DNA of 64,000 bases from Amphibalanus amphitrite (lineage: Eukaryota). The translations under genes were made by a program, and so were the position numbers. The notes under the pieces were generated by a model. That model saw nothing but the letters and a program-made list of their open reading frames with translations. It made no database searches and was not told the origin of the DNA. The stretch covers positions 416,406-480,405 of the forward strand of contig NW_024881729.1 of assembly GCF_019059575.1 (NCBI RefSeq), in the 5' to 3' direction. Positions 1,517 through 63,925 of the stretch are shown here, one piece after another; position 1 is the stretch's first letter, and the number at the start of each line of letters is the position of its first letter.

Positions 1517-1629
1517 ATGGCCCGCGGCCTCTCCGAGTGGCTGCTGACGCTGCTGGCAGTGCTGCTGTTCTGCGGCAGCGCCTCCGCCACAAAGATCTTC
1601 TACATCCACTGGAACACCACCAACCCCAT
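1517..1629 (+). CDS. EFNA: ephrin exon 1: start codon, signal peptide (MARGLSEWLLTLLAVLLFCGSASA) and first residues of the receptor-binding domain (KIFYIHWNTTNP); GTGAGT donor at 1630
   Basis: ATG followed by a hydrophobic signal peptide. The YxHWNttNP motif matches the ephrin receptor-binding-domain N-terminus (vertebrate ...VYWNSSNP...). The phase-2 end joins exon 2 in frame (NP-I-FQISN). Confidence 0.6.
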
Positions 1630-1641
1630 GTGAGTACCTGC

Positions 1642-1796
1642 AGAGGCGGATCCAGCTCAGAGGTTTGGGGGGGGGGGCAAACCATAAAAATTTATCGATT
1701 CTTTCCATGCATCGTCCATAGGCGTAATGTTAAAATCATGCCGTTTGGGGGGGGGGGCAAATGCCCATTTTGCCCCCCCCCCCCCGGATCCGCCAC
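1642..1796. mobile_element. small non-autonomous (MITE-like) insertion flanked by an 11-bp direct duplication, tgagtacctgc (1631-1641 and 1797-1807). It carries G11/C13 homopolymers that form a 16-bp hairpin, plus short terminal inverted repeats (ggcggatcc / ggatccgcc).
   Basis: Read directly: identical 11-mer on both sides; inverted ggcggatcc ends; internal tttgggggggggggcaaa ... tttgccccccccccccc. It is inserted 1 bp inside the ephrin exon-1 donor. Confidence 0.55.
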
Positions 1797-2681
1797 TGAG
1801 TACCTGCTCGGGATGCGATGAAGCCGGCGATCGGACGGCCAGGCGGGGCGCGATTGTATTTCTCTCTGATTTATGTTTCGACGATGTCCGGGGCGACCAA
1901 GCATGCAAAACGCTCCTCCCATTGTTGTCTGAGCAGCCTGTCAGCCAGGCGGAAATATATTTATATTTTATTCTTTACGACTCAATTACTCTGCGGCTGC
2001 GATTGGCTATAACTTTCTCCGATCGACGGACACCTAACGACGAGGGAATGCCTGCGTCGGATCTGACAGCGATGATATATGTCCGGAACGCTGACGAGAT
2101 TACATGTGTTTTCTCACGCCGAGGAGCGTCTGCAGAGACTGACACGATCGCGCCGGCCTCCTCTCTCTCTCACGAGCTTCGTGTTCGCGCCTCCCACGCG
2201 CGGTAGATGTTTGGGGCAGCGCGGCGGCCAGCCACTTCAGTCAGTCGCTGACTGACGCCGATGCTGACTGACGGCGGCACCCCGACGAACCGAAGAGAGC
2301 TCCGTGCGCTGTGCTGAAACTGTCGTGTAGATGGGACTACTCAAAACAGTTTGTGTCTCAAATGACCAAAAATTCGACAAAGCGCCTCGCCAATTTAGAT
2401 AATACAAAATTCCGTGCCGGCAAATAAGCACAATCGACGGGCCGCAAAGTTCCAAAATATCAAGCGCCGAATTGATATGACTCGGATTCCCAGATGAGAA
2501 CTCGAGCGGACCCCATTGAATAGGAGACTTCGCCCCCTGTCATTCATCGGGTCATAAGATGGACCGTCGCCCATCATTTATCGTCGTCAGGGTGATTCAG
2601 GACTAAAGTCGATGTCCGTTTCAAATGATCACCGCTGTTACCTAAAACACCCCTCTGTTCAGAGATCGTATCGAAGTGAGG

Positions 2682-10405: not shown

Positions 10406-13400
10406 TTCAGTGTGGGTTTGTTCAACACGGCTTACGCCACGCCAGCGCGGCCGCTGATAAATGGCAGCGTCACGCTATTAAAGCAAGACAAATGGCCGAC
10501 GCCGAGCGGCCGCGGCTCATGTCATCTACTCCTGGCGGCCGGCGGTGGAGGCGGGCCGCGGCGACCGCCCTCCGTGTCCCTGGCTCCCACCGGCGCCGGC
10601 GACCCCGGCCGGAATAACGGCAGGTAGTCACACCGTCCCCTGCGTCCCTCATATCGGCCCGGCACGGCGCCGCGAGTTGTGTCATACCAGTGATCCCTGG
10701 TGACCGTCGCCGCCGTCCGGACAACGGTTGCTCAGCAGGGCTCGTGTCCAATTAGTGTTTGCTCCGGCGCGGCCAGCCTGCAGCGACCACAGTGCAGACC
10801 ACTCTGTGTTGGACGCTCGATTAAATTACGATTCGGGGCGCCGGTCGTCGGGTAGGCGGGCTCATAGTGACCCGGCGACCGCGACTCGCCGGCTGAACTT
10901 GACAGTGATTGACGTCGAGGGTCATTGGTCGGCGGAGCTGGCAATGGCCATGGACCAACCACTGACCACTGACCGATCATCGCCATCGACCACTGACCAT
11001 TGACCATTGGCTTCTGCTTATTGACGCAGCGTTCTCCTGACCTTTGGTAACCGTCGACCTCCTAATACCCACCGCGGTGAGGTGCATGTCACTGATCAGT
11101 CGAGTAGGAATCGATGACGAGCTCCTGTCTGTCGCTGCCCACGCACTGCCAAGTGAAGCGCCTCCCGTCGACGGGCAGAGTCCGCCCCCCCCCCCCCTGT
11201 CGGTGCCGACGTGCGTCGATCGGCGCCCCTCAGCAGGAGTCTGAGCGCGCGCCGCCAGTGCGCCGGGATTGTATACCGACGGGTCAGCGCTGCGCCGGGA
11301 TTGTATACAGCGGCAGCAGCGCCCCGTGTTTGTATACACCGCGGCGTATACAGATCGGCCTGCGGGAGAGGAGCGGACTGTGCGGGATCGACCACATCCG
11401 CCGGGGGGGGGGGGGGAGGGAACATGGGCGGGGAGGCGGGTTCATGGAAACGAAGAACATTGTTTGGAGAAGTGGGTCGGACGGAGAAGTTTCGGTGCAA
11501 TTTGTCGGATGTTTGACCATCCAGCTTTGCAATAACGAAGTACAGTGACCTGCAGGTAGGTATGCAGTTGTTTGAATACTTCTCGAGCATTGTTTCTTTA
11601 TTGCGAATACCTTCAGCTTCGCTATTTCGCAATTGTCTTCCGTCTCGATTGATGACCCGGTTATGTCTCATTCCTTCTCTAGTTCTGCCTCTCACAGTGC
11701 AGGCTACACACTGGACGCTGCACATTGCACTAAATGCACACCCACCAGAGCCTTCCTCGGCTCAGTGGCGGCAGGCGCGCCAAAGTTCGCACGCGCTGCC
11801 CGGGCGCGCGGAATCCATTCAGCCTTTGGAGGGCCGTTTCTTGGTGGGCCGACGGTGCTTTTTACCGGGGGTTTTTACCGCGGGGCTTTGGCGAGCCGGC
11901 TGTCTGCAGCCGCGAGGTGGCCGTTTTTGGCGCCGGTGGCCGTGCGGCAGCGCCATTTGATCGGTCTATCCTGTGGAGGCGCGCCGGCCTCGGTCACGTA
12001 CCGTCCTGTGATGGTCGGGATGGCCGAGGGTCGGCGCGGCGCCGCCGGACGGCAACCGACCCCTCACTTATTCCCGAGTGCACGGTTTTTGTCGCCACTT
12101 TGCACTTTCTCCTCTCAGTCACCACTCTTATCACTCCATACTCAGGCTCTTATCTTCCCACTCTCTCCTTTGGCTGTTGTCTCTACGGCGCGGTGGGTGG
12201 TTTAATCAGCTTGATTCGTACCAGATAGTCTCATTCGTAGCTTGTATTTTCGTTATCCTGTTTTTTCCTTTATCTAAAGGTGTTCATCGTTTCCACTCGT
12301 GGTTTCATTCATAGGACTTCATTCATGTTTTTCATAGACATATCCTGTGTCCATTCTTGGTTCCATCTACCCCGTGGCTTTATTCATCTACTTTTATCGT
12401 TCGCTCTGGGAGTCGAAATGGAGCTCATTTCCCCTATAAACACCTTCAAATGCCTAGGAACCGCTCCACTCGCCGTCTGCTGTCCTTTCCACCGTCCACC
12501 GCCCTAGCCACCGACTGTCCACCGTCCACCGCCCTCCACTGGCTGTCCACCGTCCTTCCACCGCCCACCGCCGCCTGCCTCCTGCTGAGGGCCATCGTTC
12601 ATGGCCGCCCTTTGTGCTGCCTTGTCGGGCCGGCCGGCGGACGCCACACATCACCTGTTGCACACGTCCAGCCAGCTATTGTCCTGCCGCGGCCGTGAGC
12701 CGGTGCCATCCTGCGGAAACGGCGTGACCCGCGCCGGCCGGCCGGCCGGTGGTGCCGCCAGAGTTAACGCGCATGACGCCGCTGACACTCTGCTCAGAAA
12801 ACGGGGCCGGTTTGACAGCTCTATCGCCGTTTGGCACGGGACCGGAGCGCGACGACCGGCGCTGCAGATAAGGCGGCGGTCACGCGTCTGACGGACACGG
12901 GTGCCGGACAACACGGTCACGAGGCCGGCGGACACGGCGCGGCGGACAGCGGACACCGTGCGGGGCTCTGTACAGCGCTCCGGCACGGAGCGTCAGCACT
13001 GCGCACCGAGCGGCTGTCAGCGGTGTCATGATAGCCCGATTATTGTGCTGACAGAGCGTTGACGAATCGGTCGGTCTGTGTGTTCAGCTGCTGTCGGCGG
13101 CACGTCAGGTGTGACCCAGGGCCTCACCACCGCACACGGGCGCACCGCCGCCGCTCAGTGAACCTCAGATGGAGATCGGCCGACAGACGGCGGTCATTCC
13201 GGTCATAAATGGTGTGACAGCGCCGCCCGCAGCGCCATCTCTGTCCCCCGCTGGGAGACACATCCGGAGAGACCCAGGGCAGTTTGTCTTGCTGACCGGT
13301 CGCCGGCGTGCACTGTGCAGCACAGCGGCTGTACTGCCACCGCCGCTGCACTGGGTAGTGCGCTGCCCTGCCCGCTCGGCCGGCCGGCCGGGCAGGGCAG

Positions 13401-17169: not shown

Positions 17170-19600
17170 CTGTCTCAGATACAGATACAGATACAGATAT
17201 ATTCGAGCCAGATCCACACATTGGAGTGGCTTTTCACAAGCTCACGTCATACGATGGGGGATATCATGGGGAGGGGGAGTATATCGAGCACACATCCACG
17301 CATTCACAAATCACAGTACGTATGCTCAACATAGGCACACACAATCTAAGCATCTTGTTCAGGCATTGCTCGCAGCACCTTCATAGCGTTAGCTCTGAAA
17401 GATGACACCATTGGGTCAACTTTGAGCTGGTTGAGTCGTGCCACTCCCCTGTAGCACAGCCGCCGTCGGCCTGCCTCCGTCCGAATGGACGGGAGCGTGA
17501 GCAAATTGGCGCGCCTTGTGTCGTGCTGGTGGCGATTGCTCGCCTGGCGCCCTATGGTGCTGCTCAGTCGCTCAGGCTGGGAAGACACGATAGCTCGCTG
17601 TACAGCGCACACGGTGTGGTAGTCAATTAGTCGCTTGGCAGATAACCATTTCAATTCGCGCATTACAGATGCCACACTGTCGCGACGCCGCTTGTTCGAC
17701 ACGACCCGGGCACAGAAGTTCAGTACTTTTTGAAGCCGCCGAAGTTGCGTCTCTCCGCACGATCCGTAGACGGACGAACAGTATCGCAATACCGAGATCA
17801 CTAGTGACTGGACGATGCACTTCAAGGCAGACCTCGGCACAACATGACGTGCATGCATCAGTGCTATGAGCATACCAGTACATTTCTGTGTAACGCTGTC
17901 GACATGCGGCTCAAAACTCAAATGACGGTCCATCGTCACTCCGAGGTTCCTCACCGTTCTAGACTCAGTGATTGTGGTCGCACAGAAATCCACAGTAACA
18001 GGGGCCAAACCGCGGAGCATTGCTGGCGTTCCTATCACGAGCATCTTTGTTTTTCCTGCGTTCAGTTTCATGCCGTTATGGCAAAACCACTGAAAAACGC
18101 AGGAGAGCGCGTGCTCCATGCGTGCGATCAGCTGATCTACATCACATTTTCTGCCAGTAACCATGAGCTGCGTGTCGTCCGCAAATTGAACGACGGTGAC
18201 GTCATCAGGCACACACAAGCACAGGTCATTTGAGAAGAGCATATAAAGAACGCAGCTGAGCGCTCCGCCTTGATACACACCGATCTCGTTGGGTTTGCTA
18301 TCTGACAGGAGACTCGCACCATCTGCACCCCTCATCTGCACCTGCTGCGAATGATGCGCTAAATAGTTACGGAACCACTGCACATCTACACCGTATACCG
18401 ACAACTTTTCCAGTAGTTTTGCGTGTGGGACTACATCAAAACATTTTGATAGATCTAATAGTACCAAAATACAGATTTGTCCATTGTCCATGGCTTGAAG
18501 AGCCATGTCCGTTACAGTATGCAGAGCAGTTTCGGTGGATCGCTGTTTGCGATAACCGTGTTGAGCATCGGAAAGCAAGTGGTTATCCTCTAGATAGCTT
18601 GACAGCTGGCCCTGAACAATACGCTCCACCAGCTTCATAATCGCTGGTAGAATAGATATGGGACGCGTATCAGACGGTTTCACAGACGTCTTCCCCTTCG
18701 GAATAGGGGTCACTAGTGCGTGCTTCCAATCACGCGGCACGACACCAGTAGCCAGGCTGGAATTCACTACGTTTAGCAGTACGTGGCCCATCCCGGAGAA
18801 GAAAGACTGAAGCATCAGTACGCTAATACCATCCTTGCCGGTTGATTTCGACGGCTTCATCAGCAAAAGAGTGGCATACAGTGTGTCATAATCAGTAGTG
18901 CGCACCACGAACGCGGCGGCCGGCACACGAGGTAGACGCATGGGCACACGCATCGTAGCCGCAGGCACACTAGCAGCCGTGGCCGGTCCGATCGTGACGT
19001 AGAAGTCGTTGAGAGCGTTCGGAGTAATTCTCGGCACTTCACAGGTCTGCTGCTTTTAGCCGATAACAGGTCGCAGCGCACGCCACAGCCCGCCTCTGTC
19101 GCCGAGCCGGATCGCTCTAGTATAGCGCTCTCGGCTCTCATTCCGCACGGCGGCACGGTACAGCCGGTTCACCCGCTTGTATTCAGCGCGGTCGTCCCCA
19201 GCTAAGGCCGCGCGGCGGCTCTGCAACAGCTGCTGCGTTTCGGCAGACACGGCTGGCGCTGTCAACTGCCGGTCACGCACACGTTTGAGAGGTGCAACAG
19301 TGTCGAGCCGGCCGATGAACGTATCGCGGAAGGTCGAGGCGACTCCCCTCCCCTCCAATCCCATCTCGAACGTCATCAGATCCCCTGACGTCATGAGATC
19401 TCCTGACGTCATCATGAACCCGTGACGCCGCTCATGGATGGCCATCTGGTCGCGGACCAATTAGTCTGTGCAGGCCGATTCCCTGCCGCTCGTTGTCTGC
19501 GCTGCTGCAGTCAGCCGACCGGCCGCCGCGTTTGGCTGCGGTATTAATCGTGATGACTGAAGGTCGAGGCGACTCCCCTCCCCTCCAATCCCATCCCCTC
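17170..19600 (-). mobile_element. 5-prime-truncated CR1/L2-like LINE copy containing a reverse-transcriptase ORF. A frameshift lies near 19040. The 3-prime end abuts a (CAGATA)n tail at 17170-17200.
   Basis: ORF 17346-19037 on the minus strand has reverse-transcriptase motifs (PKGKTSVKPSDTRPISILPAIMKLVERIV, YRKQRST, FADDTQLM) and a CR1-like C-terminus. The upstream minus-strand ORF 19056-19460 resembles the endonuclease-to-RT linker. Located in ephrin intron 1. Confidence 0.75.
17346..19037 (-). CDS. LINE ORF2 fragment (reverse-transcriptase domain plus C-terminal region), 563 aa
   Basis: Reverse-transcriptase motifs 1-7, including FADD. Confidence 0.75.
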   Translation of the reverse strand: MPRITPNALNDFYVTIGPATAASVPAATMRVPMRLPRVPAAAFVVRTTDYDTLYATLLLMKPSKSTGKDGISVLMLQSFFSGMGHVLLNVVNSSLATGVVPRDWKHALVTPIPKGKTSVKPSDTRPISILPAIMKLVERIVQGQLSSYLEDNHLLSDAQHGYRKQRSTETALHTVTDMALQAMDNGQICILVLLDLSKCFDVVPHAKLLEKLSVYGVDVQWFRNYLAHHSQQVQMRGADGASLLSDSKPNEIGVYQGGALSCVLYMLFSNDLCLCVPDDVTVVQFADDTQLMVTGRKCDVDQLIARMEHALSCVFQWFCHNGMKLNAGKTKMLVIGTPAMLRGLAPVTVDFCATTITESRTVRNLGVTMDRHLSFEPHVDSVTQKCTGMLIALMHARHVVPRSALKCIVQSLVISVLRYCSSVYGSCGETQLRRLQKVLNFCARVVSNKRRRDSVASVMRELKWLSAKRLIDYHTVCAVQRAIVSSQPERLSSTIGRQASNRHQHDTRRANLLTLPSIRTEAGRRRLCYRGVARLNQLKVDPMVSSFRANAMKVLRAMPEQDA

Positions 19601-29644: not shown

Positions 29645-32600
29645 AGTCTGGAGGGACCCACCTTCACGTGGTGGACTCCGTGGGGCTCGTCCCCGCCCCC
29701 GCCGTGGAGAGCGGCGGGGGAAGCCAATCGGGTCCCAGCCCGCCCTCTCGGGGCCGGGCGCCGGCGGCCGACGCTCCACCGCGCCGTCGTCCCTACACCA
29801 TCTGCACGTCGACCCGCACACTTGGTGCACGCTCAGCGGGCCGGTGCCGCGCGAGGGCATGCCGCCTGGAGGCTGTCCGCAGCGGCGCCGGCCTGCGCTG
29901 AATGAGTGAGTCGGCGCCCCCCGCCGCTAGTGCCGGCGGCGGGGGTGCGGCGGCGTCCGCCGGAAGGAGCTCCCGGGGTCGAAGCAGGAGAGCTAAGAAC
30001 CGCCGATACCGCGCCAACCTCAAGACTCGAAGCCGCCTGCAGATCGCCTGCTGGAACGCCGAGGGACTACATCGCAAGTTGACAGAGCTCCAAGGCTGGC
30101 TATCGGAGTCGAAAATCGACGTCATCGCGGTTCAAGAGGCACAGTTCAGCGCCTCATCTCTCACCGAGATCCCGGGGTTCCAGACGGCGGCCGTCCGCCG
30201 AAGGGCACGGGGGCGGAGGAACTCAGGCCCGGCCAAGGGGGGCGACGTAGCGATCTACGTCCGCAAGGGTCTCAACTTTGACAAGCTGGAGACCGCCCCC
30301 CTGGCCATGGCGGACACGACTACCGAGTGGTGCGGCATCCGCCTGTACCTCAGCAACTCCGCCCTGAAGAGCAGCAGTCCTGCGCCAACCCTGGACATCC
30401 ACAATCTCTACCGGCCGCCAATCCGACCTGGCGAAGAAGACCAGAGGTCCGACTACTTCGACCCGTCGGCCCTCCCCACCAACCCAGACTCCCTACTGTT
30501 GGGGGACTGGAATGCCCACCACCCGGCCTGGGATCGGCACTGCATGGAGGAGGACGAGACGGGGCGTCGTCTGGCGGACTGGATGACACAAACCGGTGTC
30601 ACCACCCTCAACGACGGCTCCCACACCAGGACCAGCTACAGGGGACAACCCAGCACTCCAGACGCCGTCTTCTGCCACCGTGACCTGGCCCGCCGCTGCA
30701 CGTGGGCGGTGGGCACGGACATCGGCAGCGACCACCTGCCGATGGTCACCACCGTCACGATGAGCGGACACCGCCCAAGACGGATACGCAAGACGCGCTG
30801 GGCCTTTCACAAGGCAAACTGGACTGGCTACGAGGACGACTGCGAGTCAACTCTCGCGGGGCTCCCGGAGGACGTCACGGCAGAGCGACTCAACGAGCTC
30901 TTCACTGCCGCGCTGCTGAAGTGCAGCGTGCTGCATGTCCCCCGCGGGGCCAGATCCGACCCCAAGCCCTGGGCCATGGACCCTGAACTGGAGGAGGCTG
31001 TGCGCGACCGCCGTAGCGCGAGGGCAGCACTGGACGCCGCTCCCGGATCGACAGATGCCAGAGACCGCTGGGTGGAGGCGAAACGCCGCGCAGCGAAGAT
31101 CGAGGAGGAGGCGAAGGCGCGCTCTTTCAGGAACTTCGCGACCGAGGAGCTGAACCGGCCTGCCAACATCGGCAGAGTTCACAAGATTCTCCGGAAGATG
31201 GAGGGGGCGGAACAAGCTCCGCCCGGCCAAGCGCTCGGGGACCACGGACGTCGCGCCGTGGAGGACCGGACCAAGGCCGCGGCGTTCGCCAAACAGTACG
31301 CCAGTGTCAGCCGACAGGTCCGGAATAAGCTCCAAGACCGCAAGACGAAGTCCGAGCTGACAAGGCTCCGCGCCGAGCCCTGCGTCTGCTCCGATGCCCG
31401 TACCGAGGCCTGTTCCTTGTTTACGCCTCAGGAACTGGACACGCAGCTACGCAACATGAAGTGTGGGAAGGCGCCGGGCCCAGACGACATCTGCGCCGAG
31501 CACCTGCGCCACCTGGGCCCGGGTGCCAAGACCACTCTCCTCCGACTGCTGAACCTGTCCTGGTCCACAGGCCAGGTACCGTCTGCGTGGCGCCGGGCGA
31601 CCATCATCCCAGTTCCCAAAGCTGGGAAGGACCCAAAGATGATCGCCAGCCATAGGCCGATTGCGCTCACTAGCCACCTGGCGAAGCTGGCCGAGCGCCT
31701 AATCGCCGCCCGCCTCAACCATCTGGTAGAGCGCGATGGACTCGTGCCGCCCGAACAGGTCGGCTTCCGACGAGGCAGATCGGCTGAAGAGAACCTGGCA
31801 AGACTGGTGCAGCGGGTCCAAGATGGCTGGAACAAGCCGAAACCGAGAGGACGACCGGAAGAGGGCAAGTCCGCGGAAAAGTTTGTACTCCTCGCCTTCG
31901 ACTTCTCACGGGCGTATGATGTCATCGATCACAAGATGCTCCGCCTCAAGCTCCTCCGCCTGGGGGTGCCCAAGTGCATGTCCGCATGGATATGGGCGTT
32001 CCTCCGGGACAGGAGAGCTGCGGTCGAGGTCAACGGCGCCCGAGGAGGCGAGCGCCCGTTCCGGGCCGGACTCCCGCAAGGCAGTGTTCTGGCCCCAACG
32101 CTTTACACGCTGTGGTCGGCCGACCTGATCACGGCGCTCAAGACCGTGCCAGGCACAGACATCTTCATGTATGCCGACGACACGGCGACGCTCAGCAGCG
32201 GCGCCTCCATCGAAGAGGCCGGCCGCCGAGCCCAGCGAGCTGCGGACATCATCGCCAGCTGGGCATCAAGATGGAAGATGCGGGTCGCCGGCGAGAAAAC
32301 ACAGGCCCTCGTCCTATCCCAATGGGCCCGCGACGCGTCGAGCTTGAGCATCAAGGTGTCTGGCGCCGTGGTGACTGCCGGCCCCTCCCTCAGACTCCTG
32401 GGCGTGACCTTTGACCGCCTCCTTCACTTCGGCGCCCACTGTGCCGAGCTGCGCAAGAAGGTCCGCCCCCGTGTCGCCCAGCTGCGACGCATGACCGGGA
32501 GGAGCTGGGGACTGGGCGAACGCCAATTGAGGTCGGTGGCCAACGGGTACATCAGGGGGGCCTTAGAGTACGCGGCGGGGGCGTGGATGCCTGCGGCCTC

Positions 32601-33972
32601 CGCTTCACACCTGGAGCTGGTCGACAGGGAGCTGCGGGCGGCGGCCCGGGTGATAACCGGCTGCCCCGCCTCAACACCCGCCTTCGCCCTGCTGTCGGAG
32701 GCGGGCATGCCCGCCGCATGCACGCGCCGCTCGGTGGTGGCAGCCAGGCTACTGGGCCTGGCGATGTCCCTGCCAGAGGGCGACCCTCTCCGAGCCCTGG
32801 CGGAGTCGACCCCGCCGCGCCGCCTCAAGACGACGACCGGATGGAGGGACCGCGGTCGCGAGGCCCTAGCACGGGTCTGCCGCGGCGGCGCGCCGCTGAC
32901 CTTTGAAGCGCGGCTAGCAACCGCCGGGCCGCCGTGGCGCGATGTCCCCGGTGTGACCATCGTCCTGGAGGTGGGTCCCGGGGGACGCCGCGACTGCCAC
33001 CCGGACACAAGACGAGAGGCAGCGGAGAGCCGTCTGGCGGAGCTTCCGGCCGAGGCGACCTGGATATGGTCAGACGGCTCCGCCGCGGATGGGGTGCTGA
33101 ATGGAGGAGGAGGAGCCACCATCATTTCCCCGAACGGCGACATCAGGGAGGTGCGTGTCGCGGCAGGCGCCCTCTGCTCCAGCACCCGCGCGGAGCTATT
33201 CGCCCTGAGAGCGGCGCTGGAGGAGCTCCTGAACATGGATGGCCGTGACACCTCCCTTCCGACTGTCGTCTGTACCGACTCGATGGCGGCGCTGGCCCTC
33301 CTGCGGAGCGGCCCGGCGGCCCAGAGGACTCCGCTGGCCGCAGATATATGGAGGCTGCTGGCCGCGCTCACCGAGGGGGGCCAGCCAGTAACCATGCAGT
33401 GGGTCCCTGCACACTGCGGGCTCCCCGGTAATGAGCGAGCGGACGCCCTCGCCCGCGAGGCCAGCGCCCTACCCCAACATGACACTCCGATCGACGGTGG
33501 CACGATATGCAAGGCCGTTGCACGAGACGCTGCGCGCGCCTGGCAGCGGAGCTGGCCGGACGGCTGGTACCGGGCGATATGGGCCGACCGCCGTCCCGGC
33601 CCCGTCCTGGAGGCCGACCGTGCCGTCGCGGTTGATATTCACCAGCTCCGAGCAGGACACTGGAGCGGCTCGGCGCAGTACCTGCACCGCATCGGCCGCC
33701 GTCCCGAGGCCGACTGCCCGCAGTGCAATGACATGGGCTGCCCTGCTGCACGATGCCGCGTCTGCCGCGAGGAGGCGGACACTCCACGACACGTCCTGCT
33801 CCGATGCCCGGCGCTGGCGGGACGCCGCCTGCGGCGCCTGGGTAATATTCACCTGGAAGCGTCTATGGCAAGGGACGACGGCGCGGTGGCGGCCTTGGCC
33901 GCCGGCTACCGCGCCCAATTGAGCCTCATCGGCTACGCCCCCTAGGGGGCTGGAGGGAACAACGACGACGAC
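29645..33972 (+). mobile_element. full-length non-LTR retrotransposon (LINE of the RNase-H-containing I/R1/LOA-type group) with one long ORF. It is flanked by a 17-bp target-site duplication, cgagcttcactggcgag (29628-29644 and 33972-33988), and has a 3-prime (ACG)n tail.
   Basis: Identical 17-mer on both sides. ORF 29902-33945 encodes apurinic endonuclease, reverse transcriptase, RNase H and a C-terminal Cys-rich finger with no stops. Same orientation as ephrin, inside intron 1. Confidence 0.8.
29902..33945 (+). CDS. LINE ORF2-type polyprotein, 1347 aa, apparently intact: apurinic-type endonuclease (N-terminus, ...DHLPM), reverse transcriptase (PDDICAEHLRHLG...YADDTA), RNase H (TWIWSDGSA...TDSMAALA...VPAHCGLPGNERAD), C-terminal CCHC-like finger
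   Basis: Domain motifs read from the translation; uninterrupted frame. Confidence 0.85.
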   Translation: MSESAPPAASAGGGGAAASAGRSSRGRSRRAKNRRYRANLKTRSRLQIACWNAEGLHRKLTELQGWLSESKIDVIAVQEAQFSASSLTEIPGFQTAAVRRRARGRRNSGPAKGGDVAIYVRKGLNFDKLETAPLAMADTTTEWCGIRLYLSNSALKSSSPAPTLDIHNLYRPPIRPGEEDQRSDYFDPSALPTNPDSLLLGDWNAHHPAWDRHCMEEDETGRRLADWMTQTGVTTLNDGSHTRTSYRGQPSTPDAVFCHRDLARRCTWAVGTDIGSDHLPMVTTVTMSGHRPRRIRKTRWAFHKANWTGYEDDCESTLAGLPEDVTAERLNELFTAALLKCSVLHVPRGARSDPKPWAMDPELEEAVRDRRSARAALDAAPGSTDARDRWVEAKRRAAKIEEEAKARSFRNFATEELNRPANIGRVHKILRKMEGAEQAPPGQALGDHGRRAVEDRTKAAAFAKQYASVSRQVRNKLQDRKTKSELTRLRAEPCVCSDARTEACSLFTPQELDTQLRNMKCGKAPGPDDICAEHLRHLGPGAKTTLLRLLNLSWSTGQVPSAWRRATIIPVPKAGKDPKMIASHRPIALTSHLAKLAERLIAARLNHLVERDGLVPPEQVGFRRGRSAEENLARLVQRVQDGWNKPKPRGRPEEGKSAEKFVLLAFDFSRAYDVIDHKMLRLKLLRLGVPKCMSAWIWAFLRDRRAAVEVNGARGGERPFRAGLPQGSVLAPTLYTLWSADLITALKTVPGTDIFMYADDTATLSSGASIEEAGRRAQRAADIIASWASRWKMRVAGEKTQALVLSQWARDASSLSIKVSGAVVTAGPSLRLLGVTFDRLLHFGAHCAELRKKVRPRVAQLRRMTGRSWGLGERQLRSVANGYIRGALEYAAGAWMPAASASHLELVDRELRAAARVITGCPASTPAFALLSEAGMPAACTRRSVVAARLLGLAMSLPEGDPLRALAESTPPRRLKTTTGWRDRGREALARVCRGGAPLTFEARLATAGPPWRDVPGVTIVLEVGPGGRRDCHPDTRREAAESRLAELPAEATWIWSDGSAADGVLNGGGGATIISPNGDIREVRVAAGALCSSTRAELFALRAALEELLNMDGRDTSLPTVVCTDSMAALALLRSGPAAQRTPLAADIWRLLAALTEGGQPVTMQWVPAHCGLPGNERADALAREASALPQHDTPIDGGTICKAVARDAARAWQRSWPDGWYRAIWADRRPGPVLEADRAVAVDIHQLRAGHWSGSAQYLHRIGRRPEADCPQCNDMGCPAARCRVCREEADTPRHVLLRCPALAGRRLRRLGNIHLEASMARDDGAVAALAAGYRAQLSLIGYAP

Positions 33973-37600: not shown

Positions 37601-38478
37601 CCACTTCCGATTTGTCAAACAGCGCGCCCCCAGCGGCCGGTGCCATTCGACACCGCGCCGCGCCGAGCAAACGGCTGGCGCAGGAAACCCTTATCCCGCT
37701 CCGCGCGCTGTGTCAATATGGGACCGGGGCAAACGCGGCGCCCCGCGCCCGGCTGATAGCAGACCTAATTCGGGCCACTTCGGGACTAATTCGCCACACG
37801 GTGGGTCTAATTTACCGCGCCGCCTACGTGCGAGGGATGACTGTGCGCGTGTATTTGCCAAGAAAGCGCGTTTTTCTGCGTGGGAGCGGAATTTTAGTGG
37901 GATGCGGGTTTGTGGATTTATCAGGGAGCGAAAGGCGCCCCTGTGGCCATAGCTTGTTGCCGGCTGCTTACAGCTATGAAATGTTTGTACTGGACATTGT
38001 TCACCCGTCGGGTCGACCGTGGTCTTGTTCTCCGGGCATGGGCTGCCATTTTTCGCCATGCCCTGCGGCTCTCCGTGGGGCGGCCCTGCCCACTCTGACC
38101 TCCTCCTCCACTCCTTCCTTCTCCTCTGAGCCGTGCGCGGCTGCCGGCGGCGAAAGTGGCGCTCCGGCGGCGAGTGTGGCGCTCCACCCTCGCCAGACAG
38201 TGCCCGTGGCCACGGTCGGAACGGCGTGACCGCAGAAGTCGAGCCCCGCCCCGTCCCGGTGCGCTGACGGCCCGTCGTGTCTAGCGCTCTTTGGCCCTGC
38301 TCTAGTCCCAGTCCCGTCTGTTCACTGGTGCTGCTAGACTTCTTGGACTCGCCCAGACTGGCTGTAATGCCCTGTAGAATCTCACTAACGCCCGCCATGC
38401 AGTGAACCCTTTCTGTCTGGAATGCCATTCTGTGGCGTCAAACATCATCTGACATGTGTCTGTCTCTCTCCTTTTCAG

Positions 38479-38620
38479 ATTCCAGATCAGCAACACAGAC
38501 CACATCATCGACGTCAACAAGGGCAACAACCTGTTCGAGTACGACCAGGTGACCATCATCTGTCCGAGCTACAGCGAATGGACCAAGGAGGAGGATACGG
38601 AGAAATACATCATATATAAC
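38479..38620 (+). CDS. EFNA: ephrin exon 2 (receptor-binding domain: IFQISNTDHIIDVNKGNNLFEYDQVTIICPSYSEWTKEEDTEKYIIYN)
   Basis: ttttcag acceptor and GTGAGT donor. Matches the ephrin-A5 region [34 protein letters not shown], including the first conserved Cys. Confidence 0.85.
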
Positions 38621-41683: not shown

Positions 41684-41852
41684 GTGTCCAAAGAGGAGTA
41701 CGACACATGTCGGATCACCAACCCGAACCCGCGCATCATCGCCGTCTGCGACAAGCCGTACAAGCTGATGTTCTTCACCATCACCTTCCGGTCATTCACA
41801 CCTCAGCCGGGAGGGCTGGAGTTCCGGCCCGGCCAGGACTACTTCTTCATCT
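41684..41852 (+). CDS. EFNA: ephrin exon 3 (VSKEEYDTCRITNPNPRIIAVCDKPYKLMFFTITFRSFTPQPGGLEFRPGQDYFFI-)
   Basis: tgtttccag acceptor and GTAAGT donor. FTP...EFRPGxxYFxIS is the ephrin-A signature (human [20 protein letters not shown]). Second and third conserved Cys present. Confidence 0.9.
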
Positions 41853-43400: not shown

Positions 43401-43529
43401 CCACCTCTGCTCGGGGCGACATGCTGCGTCGGATCGGCGGCCGGTGTTCGACGCACAACATGAAGGTGGTCTTCAAGGTGTGCTGTAACGAGACAAGTCA
43501 GAACCGCATCCCCGACCACGGCGGCCCAG
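43401..43529 (+). CDS. EFNA: ephrin exon 4 (-STSARGDMLRRIGGRCSTHNMKVVFKVCCNETSQNRIPDHGGP)
   Basis: Phase-1 join to exon 3 gives FFISTS. Matches ephrin ...GGVCRTRTMKIIMKVGQ / RRSCLKLKVFVRP with the fourth conserved Cys. ctctcgccag acceptor, GTGAGG donor. Confidence 0.8.
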
Positions 43530-57243: not shown

Positions 57244-58722
57244 ATGCCTCCATTCCATGCGAGGTACTCTGGTCCCGAACTCGAGCCTGTAAGTATCACC
57301 CCAGAGGCAGTCATCAACAAGCTTCAGGGTCTCAAGCCCGCCAGCTCCCCGGGCCCCGACGGCATCCACCCACGAATCCTCTCTGAGACTGCCGAGTCTA
57401 TTGCCCCTTCTCTGGCACGGCTGTTCAACATGTCCTTAGCGTCAGGTGAGGTTCCATCCGAATGGAAGCTGGGCGAAGTTGTCCCGATATACAAGAAGGG
57501 GAACAAACAGCTGCCGACAAATTACAGGCCCGTCAGTTTGACTGCTGTTCCATGCAAAATACTGGAGTCCATCATTCGGGACCTCATTATGAACCATATG
57601 GTCTCTACTGGCCAGCTCCACAACGCTCAGCATGGTTTCCGTCCAAAAAGATCGTGCGCAACTCAGCTGCTAGCTACTCTAGAGGACTGGAGCAGGGCGA
57701 TCGAGAGGGGCGAGACAGTGGACGCTATCTATTTGGACTTTTCTAAGGCATTCGACACTGTGCCCCACCAGAGACTCCTCCACAAACTCAGGGCATATGG
57801 GATCGGTGGACACCTGCTCAGATGGATAACAAGTTTCCTGTGCTATAGAAAACAACGAGTTGTCCTGAACGGTTCATCTTCTGACTGGGCCACAGTCAGT
57901 AGCGGCGTTCCTCAGGGCTCGGTCCTGGGACCCCTTCTGTTCGTCCTATTCGTCAACGATCTTCCAGGCCTTATGCAAGGCGGGATACAGATGTTCGCGG
58001 ACGACACGAAGATTTACCGTCCTGTTCAGAACCCCTCTGATGCGGCTCTGCTCCAGGCGGACATCTCCACGGCTGTCGACTGGTCCAGCAAGTGGTGCCT
58101 CAGTTTCAACTCCCAAAAGTGCAAGGTTATCCACGTTGGAAAGCGCATTCCATATGAGTCATATGTCATTGGAGACTACCAGCTTGCTGAGGTTGAAGTT
58201 GAGCGTGATCTAGGCGTCCAAATCGATCAGGACCTCAAGTTTCGTGAACAAGCCGCTGCAGCGGTATCCAGAGCCTCCCAGATGCTCGCGGTGATTCACA
58301 AGTCCTTCGAACGCATCGACGCCACCACGCTACCGCTTCTGTATAAGACCCTGGTACGACCGCACCTCGAGTACTGCAACATCGTATGGGGCCCCTTCAA
58401 TCGCGCTGACCAGCAAAAGGTGGAGCGTGTCCAGAGACGAGCAACGAAGATGATCCCATCACTGAGGAGCCTACCATATGACCAACGACTACGCTCGCTG
58501 AAACTCCCGTCTCTCTATTATCGAAGGCGCCGCGGCGACATGATTATGACGTACCAACTTTTTCATGGGGGTGTTGACCTCGATCCTGAGTCATTCTTTG
58601 AGTTGGCTGACTCTACTACAAGAGGACACCCCTGGAAGCTGTTGAAGCCGAGAGCGTCTTCCCGATCGAGGCGAAATGCGTACAGCGTCCGGGTCGTCAA
58701 TGACTGGAATGGGCCTTGGTAA
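57244..58722 (+). CDS. LINE reverse-transcriptase ORF fragment (492 aa)
   Basis: See above. Confidence 0.8.
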   Translation: MPPFHARYSGPELEPVSITPEAVINKLQGLKPASSPGPDGIHPRILSETAESIAPSLARLFNMSLASGEVPSEWKLGEVVPIYKKGNKQLPTNYRPVSLTAVPCKILESIIRDLIMNHMVSTGQLHNAQHGFRPKRSCATQLLATLEDWSRAIERGETVDAIYLDFSKAFDTVPHQRLLHKLRAYGIGGHLLRWITSFLCYRKQRVVLNGSSSDWATVSSGVPQGSVLGPLLFVLFVNDLPGLMQGGIQMFADDTKIYRPVQNPSDAALLQADISTAVDWSSKWCLSFNSQKCKVIHVGKRIPYESYVIGDYQLAEVEVERDLGVQIDQDLKFREQAAAAVSRASQMLAVIHKSFERIDATTLPLLYKTLVRPHLEYCNIVWGPFNRADQQKVERVQRRATKMIPSLRSLPYDQRLRSLKLPSLYYRRRRGDMIMTYQLFHGGVDLDPESFFELADSTTRGHPWKLLKPRASSRSRRNAYSVRVVNDWNGPW

Positions 58723-59172: not shown

Positions 59173-59784
59173 TCCATTTCAGGGTCTGCATGCAAAATTT
59201 CTGTTATTTTAGAGTCAAGCTATTGTACTAAGGGATTTATTTTGGCAATTTAGTCATTTGTTAGGTTATAAGGCTGCAGAAACTTTCAGTTGAGGTTGGT
59301 ATCCACTATCCAGTTGCAGCTATAATTAATTGTGTCATATTTTGTATCATTTTCTGAACATGTAAACACCTACCTATATGAATTCAAATTTTGTGATTGT
59401 AGAAAAGCAGTTACCCTCACATTGCAGCGGGGATTAGAACAATTAACCACACTTGTTATACAAAAAGCCTGTTTGCCATCAATTTTGGGAATCCAAATTG
59501 GGTATTGGTCAGGTAGATGTAGCACAAGCTGCCCGATGCACGAGAATGGGTCTTTCTAACCAAACCTTACCTAACCTGACCTACAACCTACAGCCTTAAA
59601 CCTAAAATTTACAACCTACGACCTAGTCCTACGGTATGGCATATCACAACAGCTTGTGCTACGTCTGCTACCATGACCCAACTTTGTGCCAATTCATACC
59701 AACTTGGGATGACAGTCACTGCAGATGTGTGCTGACCATGCAGGTCTTTGTTACAATTGCAATTCTATTGTGTTACAGGTTCGG

Positions 59785-60845
59785 CGTTCTACAGCTGCGA
59801 CCCGCCATGGCTGGGCCACCGCGGCGGCATCACCTTCAGGGTGGACCTGCCCGTGGCCACCCGCCGGTCGGACCCGCCTGCAGTCCGCAGGGAAGCTGCC
59901 CTGCGAGCCATTGCAGAGCTCCCGCACCCGGACGTCACTATCTGGTCGGACGGCTCGGCTCGCGGCGGACGGAACAGGGCGGCGCAGGCGCTGATCCAGT
60001 TCCACCACCTCAACAGAGAAGAGACCGTGCGCGCTCCTGCAGGGGCGGTCTGCTCCAGCCTAAGAGCAGAACTGACCGCCATGCGCGAGGCGTTCGCGGC
60101 TGTGGCCGGCCTGGAGGACGGGGAGTTGGCATCGACCAAGTCGGTCCGCCTCCTCACCGACTCAAGGTCTGGGCTCCAACTACTCGGCCGCGGCCCAGCT
60201 AACCAGACCATGGCCCTGGCCGCCGAGGTGTGGAGGCTGCTGAGTGCTGAGCACCCTCGCCGAGAACGGCACCGAGACGGTGCTCCAGTGGGTGCCAGGC
60301 CATGCCGGGCTGGACGGCAACGAAACCGCCGACCGCCTGGCTGGCGAGGCCACGGCGGGCGACCAAGACAGCGCACCGATCGACCTGTCGAGTGCGCGAG
60401 CCGCCGTCACGCGCCATGTCCGGGAGCTGTCGCGACAGAGGGCAACCGCTGCCCACCCGCACCCGGACCCCACGCCTGGCCACGACTCCCTGGCGCGCTG
60501 GGGTCGGTGACGCTGTCCCAGCTGAGGACCGGCACATCACCGCTGACCCGTGACACGCTCCACAAGATTGGCCCGGAAGCCGACGACGAATGCCCCGCGT
60601 GCGGGGAGCCCGACAGCGCGGCGCACCTACTGACCGATTGTCCGGCCTATGAGGCGGCCCGCCGCCGCCGCTCGGGTGCCGACCCTCGCCTGGTCGACGT
60701 CCTCGGCGGCCCGGCGACGAAGGTCGTCACCTTCATCGAGGATGTTGGGCGGACCGAGCCGCCGCTCGACCCGCCTGCGCCGCCGCCCCCCTGAGCGGGT
60801 TGGCGATGGGATGCAGAAGAAGAAGAAGAAGCAACTGCCAGCGCG
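59785..60845 (+). mobile_element. 5-prime-truncated LINE fragment (RNase H plus C-terminal zinc-finger region, with two frameshifts) from a family related to the intact element at 29645-33972. Ends in a (GAA)n tail.
   Basis: …DVTIWSDGSA…TDSRSGLQLL…VPGHAGLDGNETAD…CPACGEPDSAAHLLTDCP, compared with the intact element's RNase H and zinc finger. The tail is agaagaagaagaagaag. Confidence 0.8.
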
Positions 60846-62864
60846 CCACGGCGGCGAAGCCGAGTTCCGCCGCTGGACCGCCCGCGCAATGGCCAGCACA
60901 GACAAGAAACAACCGAATCACAACACCTACAATTACGTTATTGTTATGGTATTGACATTGTTACAATTAACCCTGCTCTTTCGAGCGTGGATGCACGCTA
61001 AAATTGTCGCATAATTCCATGCAGCTTCCACCCTTCTGCAATACAAAGTTTGAATACAAAGTAGTCTTACAATAGGTTTAGAACTTATGTGCAGATTGTC
61101 GATGCTGGTTGACTTGATGATTGGAATTGTGTTTATCTGTTTTATCTGTTTTGACTTAAATATATGGCCATGGACTATGGCCTACCTTGGGAAGTGTCTA
61201 TGATTTCAACAAAACATTTTTCATCAGGATACGCTGCAGGGTACATAGTACATACGTAGTGAAAATTTTGGGCATGTATGGGTGCGCATGTGGAGATGTA
61301 GACTGCGAATGAGACGGACTACGACGGTTTTTGAACCAATTAAATCTGATTGACAACATAATGTAGGACTAAAAACTGACTGTCAGAAGAATATTCACAG
61401 AATATTCACTTCACCCGGTACAACGAAAAGGGAAAGTCAGGGAACAGGGGCAGGGTACATCTCGAAGATCAATCAAATTGCAGGTGCCGATTGGTTATGG
61501 ATCATCGTAGCTCAATGTACTGCCTTGTGCTGCTTTATTGATTGAAATTGCATCCAGCTTGTATTGAAAGAAGTCATTATGGAAGATTTTAAAAAGGTTT
61601 TTGAATAATTTAAATACTTTGAATTTATATTTCTGCAGAATTATATACCCGTATCATTCTTTTAATGTCAATATTTGTATATTTTCTAGCATTTAAGGAA
61701 ATAGTGGCCTCAAGTTTTTAGAAAATATCTGATTTTGCTCTCTGGGCCACTGCAGATCCCTAAAAAGTTAGGAGCCGTCTTCATTATTTAATGTATAAAA
61801 CCAAATAAATTATCACTGCTCAAAAGTGGAAGAAATGACAAATGAAAAAAAGTTTTCCTACAGCGTTGCAATCCAGATTTCAAGATAGTGATGGGCGCAC
61901 TAGAAAGCAAGTAAAAGTACTCCACAAGGTAAAAGTAAGGAACAAGAATATCCTTATACTGTTTCAGAATTCGGTAACAAACATTTTTTGTGTGTTTTAA
62001 ATACCCGGACAAATCGATTCCAGAATCAGTCTTGATGATATTATATGGTTTTTGTATGGTGTTGGTGGTACTCGAATGACCAAAGTCAGTACATGTCCAT
62101 CACCTTTCGATATTTCCGTGGTGCTCGCTCCCATTTCATAGCTGCTCACGGTGTTTTGTGCTGACGTCATATGGTGCTGCTCCACTAGCGCCACCATACG
62201 GCGTCAGCTGGCGAATTATCCAGTTAATACCAGAGCCCCTCCATTTCAGAGGGTCTGCATGCAAAATTTCTGTTATTTTTTAGAGTCAAGCTATTGTACT
62301 AAGGGATTTATTTTGGCAATTTAGTCATTTGTTAGGTTATAAGGCTGCAGAAACTTTTAGTTGAGGTTGGTATCCATTATCCAGTTGCAGCTATAATCGT
62401 GTCATATTTTGTATCATTTTCTGAACATGTAAACACCTACCTATATGAATTCAAATTTTGTGATTGTAGAAAAGCAGTTACCCTCACATTGCAGCGGGGA
62501 TTAGAACAATTAACCACACTTGTTATACAAAAAGCCTGTTTGCCATCAATTTTGGGAATCCAAATTGGGTATTGGTAAGGTAGATGTAGCACAAGCTGCC
62601 CGATGCACGAGAATGGGTCTTTCTAACCAAACCTTACCTAACCTGACCTACAACCTACAGCCTTAAACCTAAAATTTACAACCTACGACCTAGTCCTACG
62701 GTATGGCATATCACAACAGCTTGTGCTACGTCTGCTAGTGCTACCATGACCCAACTTTGTGCCAATTCATACCAACTTGGGATGACAGTCACTGCAGATG
62801 ACAGATGTGTGCTGACCATGCAGGTCTTTGTTACAATTGCAATTCTATTGTGTTACAGGTTCGG

Positions 62865-63925
62865 CGTTCTACAGCTGCGACCCGCCATGGCTGGGCCACC
62901 GCAGCGGCATCACCTTCAGGGTGGACCTGCCCGTGGCCACCCGCCGGTCGGACCCGCCTGCAGTCCGCAGGGAAGCTGCCCTGCGAGCCATTGCAGAGCT
63001 CCCGCACCCGGACGTCACTATCTGGTCGGACGGCTCGGCTCGCGGCGGACGGAACAGGGCGGCGCAGGCGCTGATCCAGTTCCACCACCTCAACAGAGAA
63101 GAGACCGTGCGCGCTCCTGCAGGGGCGGTCTGCTCCAGCCTAAGAGCAGAACTGACCGCCATGCGCGAGGCGTTCGCGGCTGTGGCCGGCCTGGAGGACG
63201 GGGAGTTGGCATCGACCAAGTCGGTCCGCCTCCTCACCGACTCAAGGTCTGGGCTCCAACTACTTGGCCGCGGCCCAGCTAACCAGACCATGGCCCTGGC
63301 CGCCGAGGTGTGGAGGCTGCTGAGTGCTGAGCACCCTCACCGAGAACGGCACCGAGACGGTGCTCCAGTGGGTGCCAGGCCATGCCGGGCTGGACGGCAA
63401 CGAAACCGCCGACCTCCTGGCTGGCGAGGCCACGGCGGGCGACCAAGACAGCGCACCGATCGACCTGTCGAGTGCGCGGGCCGCCGTCACGCGCCATGTC
63501 CGGGAGCTGTCGCGACAGAGGGCAACCGCTGCCCACCCGCACCCGGACCCCACGCCTGGCCACGACTCCCTGGCGCGCTGGGGTCGGTGACGCTGTCCCA
63601 GCTGAGGACCGGCACATCACCGCTGACCCGTGACACGCTCCACAAGATTGGCCCGGAAGCCGACGACGAATGCCCCGCGTGCGGGGAGCCCGACCGCGCG
63701 GCGCACCTACTGACCGATTGTCCGGCCTATGAGGCGGCCCGCCGCCGCCGCTGGGGTGTCGACCCTCGCCTGGTCGACGTCCTCGGCGGCCCGGCGACGA
63801 AGGTCGTCACCTTCATCGAGGATGTTGGGCGGACCGAGCCGCCGCTCGACCCGCCTGCGCCGCCGCCCCCCTGAGCGGGTTGGCAATGGGATGCAGAAGA
63901 AGAAGAAGAAGCAACTGCCAGCGCG
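62865..63925 (+). mobile_element. second copy of the same 5-prime-truncated LINE fragment, carrying the same two frameshifts (part of the 3.08-kb tandem duplication)
   Basis: Near-identical to 59785-60845, with a few substitutions. Confidence 0.8.

Follow-up and report, generated by a model that had tools for sequence, protein, structure and literature searches.

What kind of sequence lies at the very beginning of intron 1 of this ephrin gene, how did it come to be so close to a 5' splice site, and is the gene affected by it? The gene occupies the + strand of a 64-kb stretch of G+C-rich (~60%) animal DNA, hereafter called the window. A preliminary description of this DNA had proposed a MITE-like insertion just inside the intron 1 splice donor, and the terminal inverted repeats, the target-site duplication and an empty site in a relative all agree with a class II element of that kind near the beginning of the intron. 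Based upon these and upon comparison with known transposons, the sequence is very probably a 158-bp non-autonomous MITE of the hAT superfamily, mobilised in trans by a Tip100-like hAT transposase.

The identity of the gene is well supported. The spliced ephrin product matches the Pfam Ephrin family (E=2.4e-39), and its closest homologues are those of arthropods (Timema, 88%; a pseudoscorpion, 74%), together with an ENA contig (93%). The junction between exons 1 and 2 should read …AACCCCAT/ATTCCAG… in nucleotides and is …YIHWNTTNPIFQISNTDHIIDVN… in the spliced ephrin product; at the peptide level (NPIFQISNTDH) it aligns without gaps to the spliced homologue P0023. The acceptor of intron 1 (ttttcag/A at 38478/38479) is consistent with the reading frame and, from the exon 1 donor and the start of exon 2, the intron therefore extends from 1630 to 38478 (36.8 kb). 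The coordinates of the gene and of the element are collected in Table 1.

Table 1. Features of the ephrin gene and of the element inserted in its first intron (positions in the window)
Feature	Position	Strand	Remarks
Ephrin exon 1, coding part	1517..1629	+	Signal peptide + IFYIHWNTTNP; ATG at 1517; phase-2 end 'AT'
Intron 1 5' splice site GTGAGT	1630..1635	+	Read from sequence
Target-site duplication, left 8-bp copy AGTACCTG	1633..1640	.	Intron +4..+11
MITE, non-coding, 158 bp, 56% G+C	1641..1798	.	Terminal inverted repeats and duplication; missing from the orthologous site of L131
Left terminal inverted repeat CAGAGGCGGATCC	1641..1653	+	Fits YARNG; shares 9/11 bases with Tip100
Subterminal repeat, copy 1, GTTTG11CAAA	1663..1681	+	Direct-repeat search
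Subterminal repeat, copy 2, GTTTG11CAAA	1743..1761	+	5' arm of local hairpin
Inverted copy TTTGC13	1769..1785	+	Can pair with G11CAAA of copy 1 or copy 2
Right terminal inverted repeat, reverse complement CAGTGGCGGATCC	1786..1798	-	Arm-to-arm comparison
Target-site duplication, right 8-bp copy AGTACCTG	1799..1806	.	CTG directly before copy
Ephrin exon 2	38479..38620	+	Sets 3' limit of intron 1
Ephrin exon 3	41684-41852	+	
Ephrin exon 4	43401-43529	+	

The surroundings of the gene are rich in repeats. Intron 1 is packed with ORFs of LINE-type retrotransposons, and in the window as a whole such ORFs were located at 17346-19037 (-), 29902-33945 (+), 57244-58722 (+), and 59748-60794 and 62828-63874 (+). 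The ORF at 29902-33945 is intact and specifies 1347 aa with endonuclease, reverse transcriptase and RNase H domains; those at 59748-60794 and 62828-63874 are copies 3,080 bp apart, which suggests a tandem duplication at the 3' end of the window. An exact look-up of an intact LINE ORF gave no recorded match. A long (GA)n microsatellite lies within intron 1 at 2690-2790. In what is presumed to be promoter or 5' UTR, some 250-360 bp ahead of the ephrin ATG, are a perfect 30-bp palindrome (CACTGACTGCCGCCG/CGGCGGCAGTCAGTG, 1157-1186) and a (GCC)n run (1240-1272), and CAGTCAGTC/GACTGAC motifs resembling those upstream of ephrin are found again at 2240-2275. Lastly, a C14 run (11184-11197, preceded by CAGAGTCCGCC) and an inverted G14 run (11403-11416, preceded by CATCCGCC) enclose ~200 bp with three GGGATTGTATAC-like repeats. 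This segment (11184-11416) may be a second transposon in a degenerate state; it showed neither clean terminal repeats nor a duplication.

The element in intron 1 possesses the short terminal inverted repeats that had been ascribed to it. The arms (13 nt, with one mismatch) are exactly terminal and have the end sequences CAGAG and CAGTG; once they are taken as the termini the length becomes 158 bp, not the 155 bp first given. GGATCC, the BamHI site, is present at both ends. Two copies of AGTACCTG directly abut the arms. The duplication had originally been put at 11 bp, and an exact direct repeat of that length does exist (TGAGTACCTGC, 1631-1641 and 1797-1807), but the true target-site duplication is only 8 bp of it. 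The remaining three bases are coincident: the TG of the flank is also the final dinucleotide of the right repeat, and the C that opens the left repeat recurs as the base past the right duplication copy; three such extra matches have a chance of ~1 in 64. It follows from the shorter register that the target was not the position right after the first G of the donor, as had been thought, but intron bases +4 to +11, after an untouched GTG. The 155-bp/11-bp and 158-bp/8-bp readings predict one and the same empty allele across the insertion point, CCCATGTGAGTACCTGCTCGGG.

Within the element are three homopolymer runs: G11 at 1667-1677, G11 at 1747-1757 and C13 at 1773-1785. The G11/C13 hairpin of the preliminary description is thus borne out as to its runs and its stem, except that the perfect stem (G11CAAA/TTTGC11, with a loop of 7 nt) measures 15 bp rather than 16. 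The minimum free energy of the element is -74.7 kcal/mol as RNA (z=-3.6) and -36.8 kcal/mol as DNA (z=-3.2). Its sole fully open reading frame found no match in a collection of 5.8 billion proteins. In its size (MITEs being below ~800 bp), its lack of coding capacity, its terminal inverted repeats with a duplication and its ability to fold, the element has the properties of a MITE.

A further property of a MITE, an empty orthologous site, was found in a relative. A search with the exon 1 peptide located L131, a 1,071-bp ENA metagenome contig, through a single 43-aa ORF, P0121, which is 85% identical to the ephrin exon 1 peptide and ends …IHWNTTNPM*. At the orthologous site this contig reads …CCAACCCCATGTGAGTACCTGGCCAGATAAGG…, with AGTACCTG present once and no repeat-like sequence. 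The empty site that had been suggested as a check was accordingly there, L131 carrying CCCCATGTGAGTACCTG once and without the element. The donor and the five bases following it are identical in the window and L131. When the element and one copy of the duplication are removed in silico, the window becomes collinear with L131 at 87% identity (495/571). The alignment is exact through AGTACCTG, after which come ~55 nt of poor, indel-rich alignment and then a long, well-conserved stretch of intron. With this poorer stretch of ~55 nt directly 3' of it, the empty site is exact on its 5' side, whereas on its 3' side it is collinear only. The comparison supports insertion in the lineage of the window.

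Two other observations on related sequences may be mentioned. Window positions 1860-2210 (intron 1, ~+230 to +580) are about as well conserved in L131 (680-1050) as is the coding sequence of exon 1; this proximal conservation could mean no more than that the relative is a close one, or may mark a conserved intronic regulatory block. A relative's contig carrying exons 2 and 3 (L121) has the exons alone in common with the window, and contains no repeat-like sequence.

Elements with the same termini occur elsewhere. When metagenome contigs were scanned with the pattern GGCGGATCC-N(117-147)-GGATCCGCCWCTG at least 120 loci (L001-L120) were obtained, and among the matches listed are 70 elements with YAR termini, mostly CAGTG or CAGGG. 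In these 70 elements from the matches listed, the 8-bp duplication is perfect in 22 cases, has one mismatch in 5 and two mismatches in 10; at the other lengths compared (6, 7, 9, 10 and 11 bp), as with the register shifted, there is essentially no match in the same set. Related elements with target-site duplications, for which the preliminary description had advised a search, hence do exist, in metagenome contigs, but their duplications are of 8 bp. As a control, the same pattern was run against 596 Gb of bacterial and archaeal genomes and gave nine matches, all of which lack both the CAG terminus and the duplication; these represent chance or GGCGGATCCGCC palindromes. The 8-bp register and the clean prokaryotic control indicate that the terminal repeat is the genuine, widespread end of a transposon which makes 8-bp duplications and appears to be eukaryotic. 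In 27 duplications of related elements position 4 is an A in 17, a base shared by AGTACCTG.

These metagenome elements (for example the Ga0081606 set, L037, L057, L106 and L107) have identical 13-bp terminal repeats, 8-bp duplications and lengths of 140-175 bp. They also share with the window element a common layout, that is, repeat, short spacer, G-run, AT-rich centre, C-run and repeat. Their interiors differ from it: with the terminal repeats stripped off, the similarity of the window element to the retrieved metagenome elements is not significant (p=0.26), and membership in the group therefore rests upon terminal repeats, duplication length and architecture. L107 was considered for its interior similarity and set aside, as this consists mostly of the G-run/CAAA motif. 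Of the 70 elements ending in this way among the matches listed, 43 contain runs of at least six G or C (maxima G11 and C13), and the RNA minimum free energy of those listed averages -62.5 kcal/mol and reaches -107.8. The value for the window element is typical of the group. Since G/C runs and a stable hairpin are generic in this group of transposons, they are not special to the ephrin locus.

In one subfamily, made up of L100 and about 12 Ga0081606 loci (e.g. L022, L040, L045, L065 and L067), the sequence ...CCACATC precedes an inner ATGTGGCGGATCC. In L100 an outer CAGTGGCGGATCC lies 37 bp upstream of the inner terminus, and the subfamily therefore has a duplicated terminus. A different kind of repeat, CG-N-AGGCGGATCCGCC-T-N-TGGCGGAAA, is found as units spaced ~145 bp apart in L104, L111, L113, L118, L122, L126 and L129, which are prokaryote-like contigs (one from a Kiritimatiellia MAG). 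These units resemble a bacterial palindromic repeat of the interspersed or array type, are unrelated to the MITE, and share only GGCGGATCC with it.

Had the 11-bp repeat been the true target-site duplication, one would have a 155-bp Mutator-like (MULE-derived) MITE. Duplications in the Mutator superfamily are 9-11 bp in length and would accommodate the exact 11-bp direct repeat present here. In that register, however, the inverted repeat is no longer terminal and becomes asymmetric, its arms starting 3 nt inside one end and 2 nt inside the other, so that a 9-11-bp duplication flanking exactly terminal repeats is not what one sees. Elements with the same repeat elsewhere, among the matches listed, begin with CAG and are flanked by duplications of 8 bp but never of 9-11 bp, and the terminal repeat itself matches that of a known hAT element, Tip100. 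We therefore consider a Mutator-like origin highly unlikely.

One might also ask whether the sequence is a transposon at all. BLAST and a repeat-pattern search allowing two mismatches gave only homopolymer runs and chance-level matches, with no second copy in the 64-kb window; this solitary occurrence, a GGATCC at each end and homopolymer "tails" of G or C, long homopolymers being error-prone in assemblies, might point to a local duplication or palindrome, or to an assembly or cloning artefact. What speaks against an artefact is that no fewer than 70 independent elements, drawn from many metagenomes, have GGATCC within their conserved terminal repeat and commonly contain G/C runs, and the relative has a clean empty site. 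Furthermore, the combination of a 13-bp terminal inverted repeat with an 8-bp duplication directly outside it is seen a single time in the window and in 0 of 100 Markov-simulated windows. A non-transposon origin is accordingly exceedingly improbable. Two specific forms of it, a local tandem duplication as the source of the flanking identity, and a cloning artefact arising from BamHI sites and G/C tails, are each excluded by the related elements together with the empty site.

The superfamily was assigned from the termini and the duplication. Elements of the hAT superfamily are distinguished by short terminal repeats ending in YARNG, to which CAGNG termini conform, and by 8-bp duplications; the YARNG consensus is reportedly that of Rubin et al. 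in 2001. Both hallmarks are seen here, the duplication being of 8 bp and the terminal inverted repeats falling within ~10-25 bp with ends that fit YARNG. Target preferences of the type nTnnnnAn (Ac) or nnnTAnnn (Buster) are weak tendencies in hAT elements rather than strict criteria; AGTACCTG fits neither consensus.

Two described elements resemble this one. Tip100, an autonomous hAT of Ipomoea purpurea and of the "hAT-Tip100" group, has the 11-bp repeat CAGGGGCGGAG and generates 8-bp duplications, in a heterologous host included (PMC12511174). At both ends of the window element 9 of 11 bases of CAG(A/T)GGCGGAT agree with the Tip100 repeat, the mismatches falling at position 4, which is variable, and at the final position, and both elements make target-site duplications of 8 bp. 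Tip100 is otherwise quite different: it is 3.8 kb in length, encodes an 808-aa transposase and comes from a plant, whereas the window element is 158 bp, non-coding and from an arthropod. The second is BmMITE-13 of Bombyx mori, with the repeat CAAGGGCGGATCCAG, an unspecific 8-bp duplication and the label "Pegasus-like" (PMC2997013 Table 1); BmMITE-14 and BmMITE-16 have termini which start with CAGTGGCGGATT (PMC2997013). Like the window element, BmMITE-13 is small, non-coding and from an arthropod host, and has a matching terminal repeat and an 8-bp duplication; it is ~263 bp against 158 bp here, and the comparison covered repeat and duplication. The silkworm paper gives no hAT assignment for it. 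Literature retrieved with the terminal repeat string consisted mostly of PCR primers, these two papers being the sole relevant ones.

The 8-bp duplication by itself is not unique to hAT, and the label "Pegasus-like" that BmMITE-13 received might suggest a MITE of some other superfamily with duplications of ~8 bp, such as P. The ends of the Drosophila P element begin with CATGATG and are unlike the CAG ends found here. The termini fit the hAT consensus, moreover, and agree in 9 of 11 bases with Tip100, a functionally proven hAT. Another superfamily is for these reasons very improbable. From the YARNG-fitting termini, the 8-bp duplication and the matches to Tip100 and BmMITE-13, the most fitting classification of the element is as a hAT-type MITE whose terminus resembles that of Tip100.

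The transposase which mobilised it was presumably that of a Tip100-like hAT. Members of the hAT superfamily are moved by a DDE transposase that has a hAT dimerisation domain and whose own element shares their termini. In the window and the fetched loci no pairs of the repeat 0.6-8 kb apart with a duplication, such as would denote an autonomous hAT, were found, nor was a hAT C-terminal motif in the six-frame translations of the same sequences. The long ORFs of the window are LINE RT/APE/RNase H and not hAT transposase.

The hAT reading leads to a simple scheme for the insertion. A hAT transposase would recognise the 13-bp terminal inverted repeats CAG(A/T)GGCGGATCC and cut AGTACCTG (+4 to +11 in the ephrin intron) with an 8-bp stagger, and gap repair would then duplicate the eight target bases. 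In the pre-mRNA the element would be expected to fold upon itself, its terminal repeats pairing with each other and a G11 run pairing with the C13 run, and the folded element would be removed along with the 36.8-kb intron.

The consequences for the splice site follow from the position of the duplication. Because the upstream copy abuts the untouched GTG, the donor and the first 11 bases of the intron (GTGAGTACCTG) are the same as before the insertion and the element begins only at +12; these bases cover the region contacted by U1 and U6. It was thus an overstatement to place a strong secondary structure directly at the 5' splice site. A second GT donor was not created, since the right copy of AGTACCTG is preceded by CTG. 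As the 8-bp duplication kept the splice signal unchanged, we have before us a mobile-element insertion that is ordinary except for the unusual tightness of its location, and the intact donor explains how such an insertion can persist in an essential developmental gene. The insertion is most likely tolerated, lineage-specific and functionally neutral, presumably for splicing as well.

There is an opposing reading, in which the hairpin or G-runs might modulate the splicing of exon 1 or Pol II elongation, or the hairpin might serve as a source of small RNAs. The element does fold stably (-74.7 kcal/mol, z=-3.6) and, when folded in its context, the palindromic GUAC of both duplication copies and the GUG at +1..+3 pair, extending the stem in such a way that the donor would be buried. 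Shuffled sequences fold as stably as the element in its context (z=-0.5), however, so burial of the donor by the stem remains speculation. Rfam likewise gives weak miRNA-like matches on the G11/C13 hairpin, but those to the miRNA precursors mir-1249 (26.4 bits, gathering threshold 83) and mir-328 (27 bits, gathering threshold 70) do not reach their thresholds. Against a function are also the unchanged sequence of the donor, the generic nature of stable structure in this group of MITEs, and the relative L131, which is without the element, so that the element is not conserved. A functional insertion is on this evidence very improbable. As a model, GUAC pairing might conceivably bury the 5' splice site under a stem of -75 kcal/mol and so tune splicing, or the G11/C13 hairpin might be diced into small RNAs, though we think there is little likelihood of either. 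If true, the effect of the hairpin upon ephrin would mean that the regulation of an axon-guidance ligand had changed in this lineage specifically.

In itself the type of terminal repeat is not new, having been described in the silkworm and matching that of the plant Tip100, and hAT-type MITEs in introns are commonplace. What the locus illustrates is that an 8-bp duplication lets a transposon enter the extended 5' splice-site region (+4..+11) and leave the donor unaltered. The terminal repeat CAGNGGCGGATCC(AG) is found in very many apparently eukaryotic metagenome contigs, and may serve repeat annotators as a signature of this hAT group.
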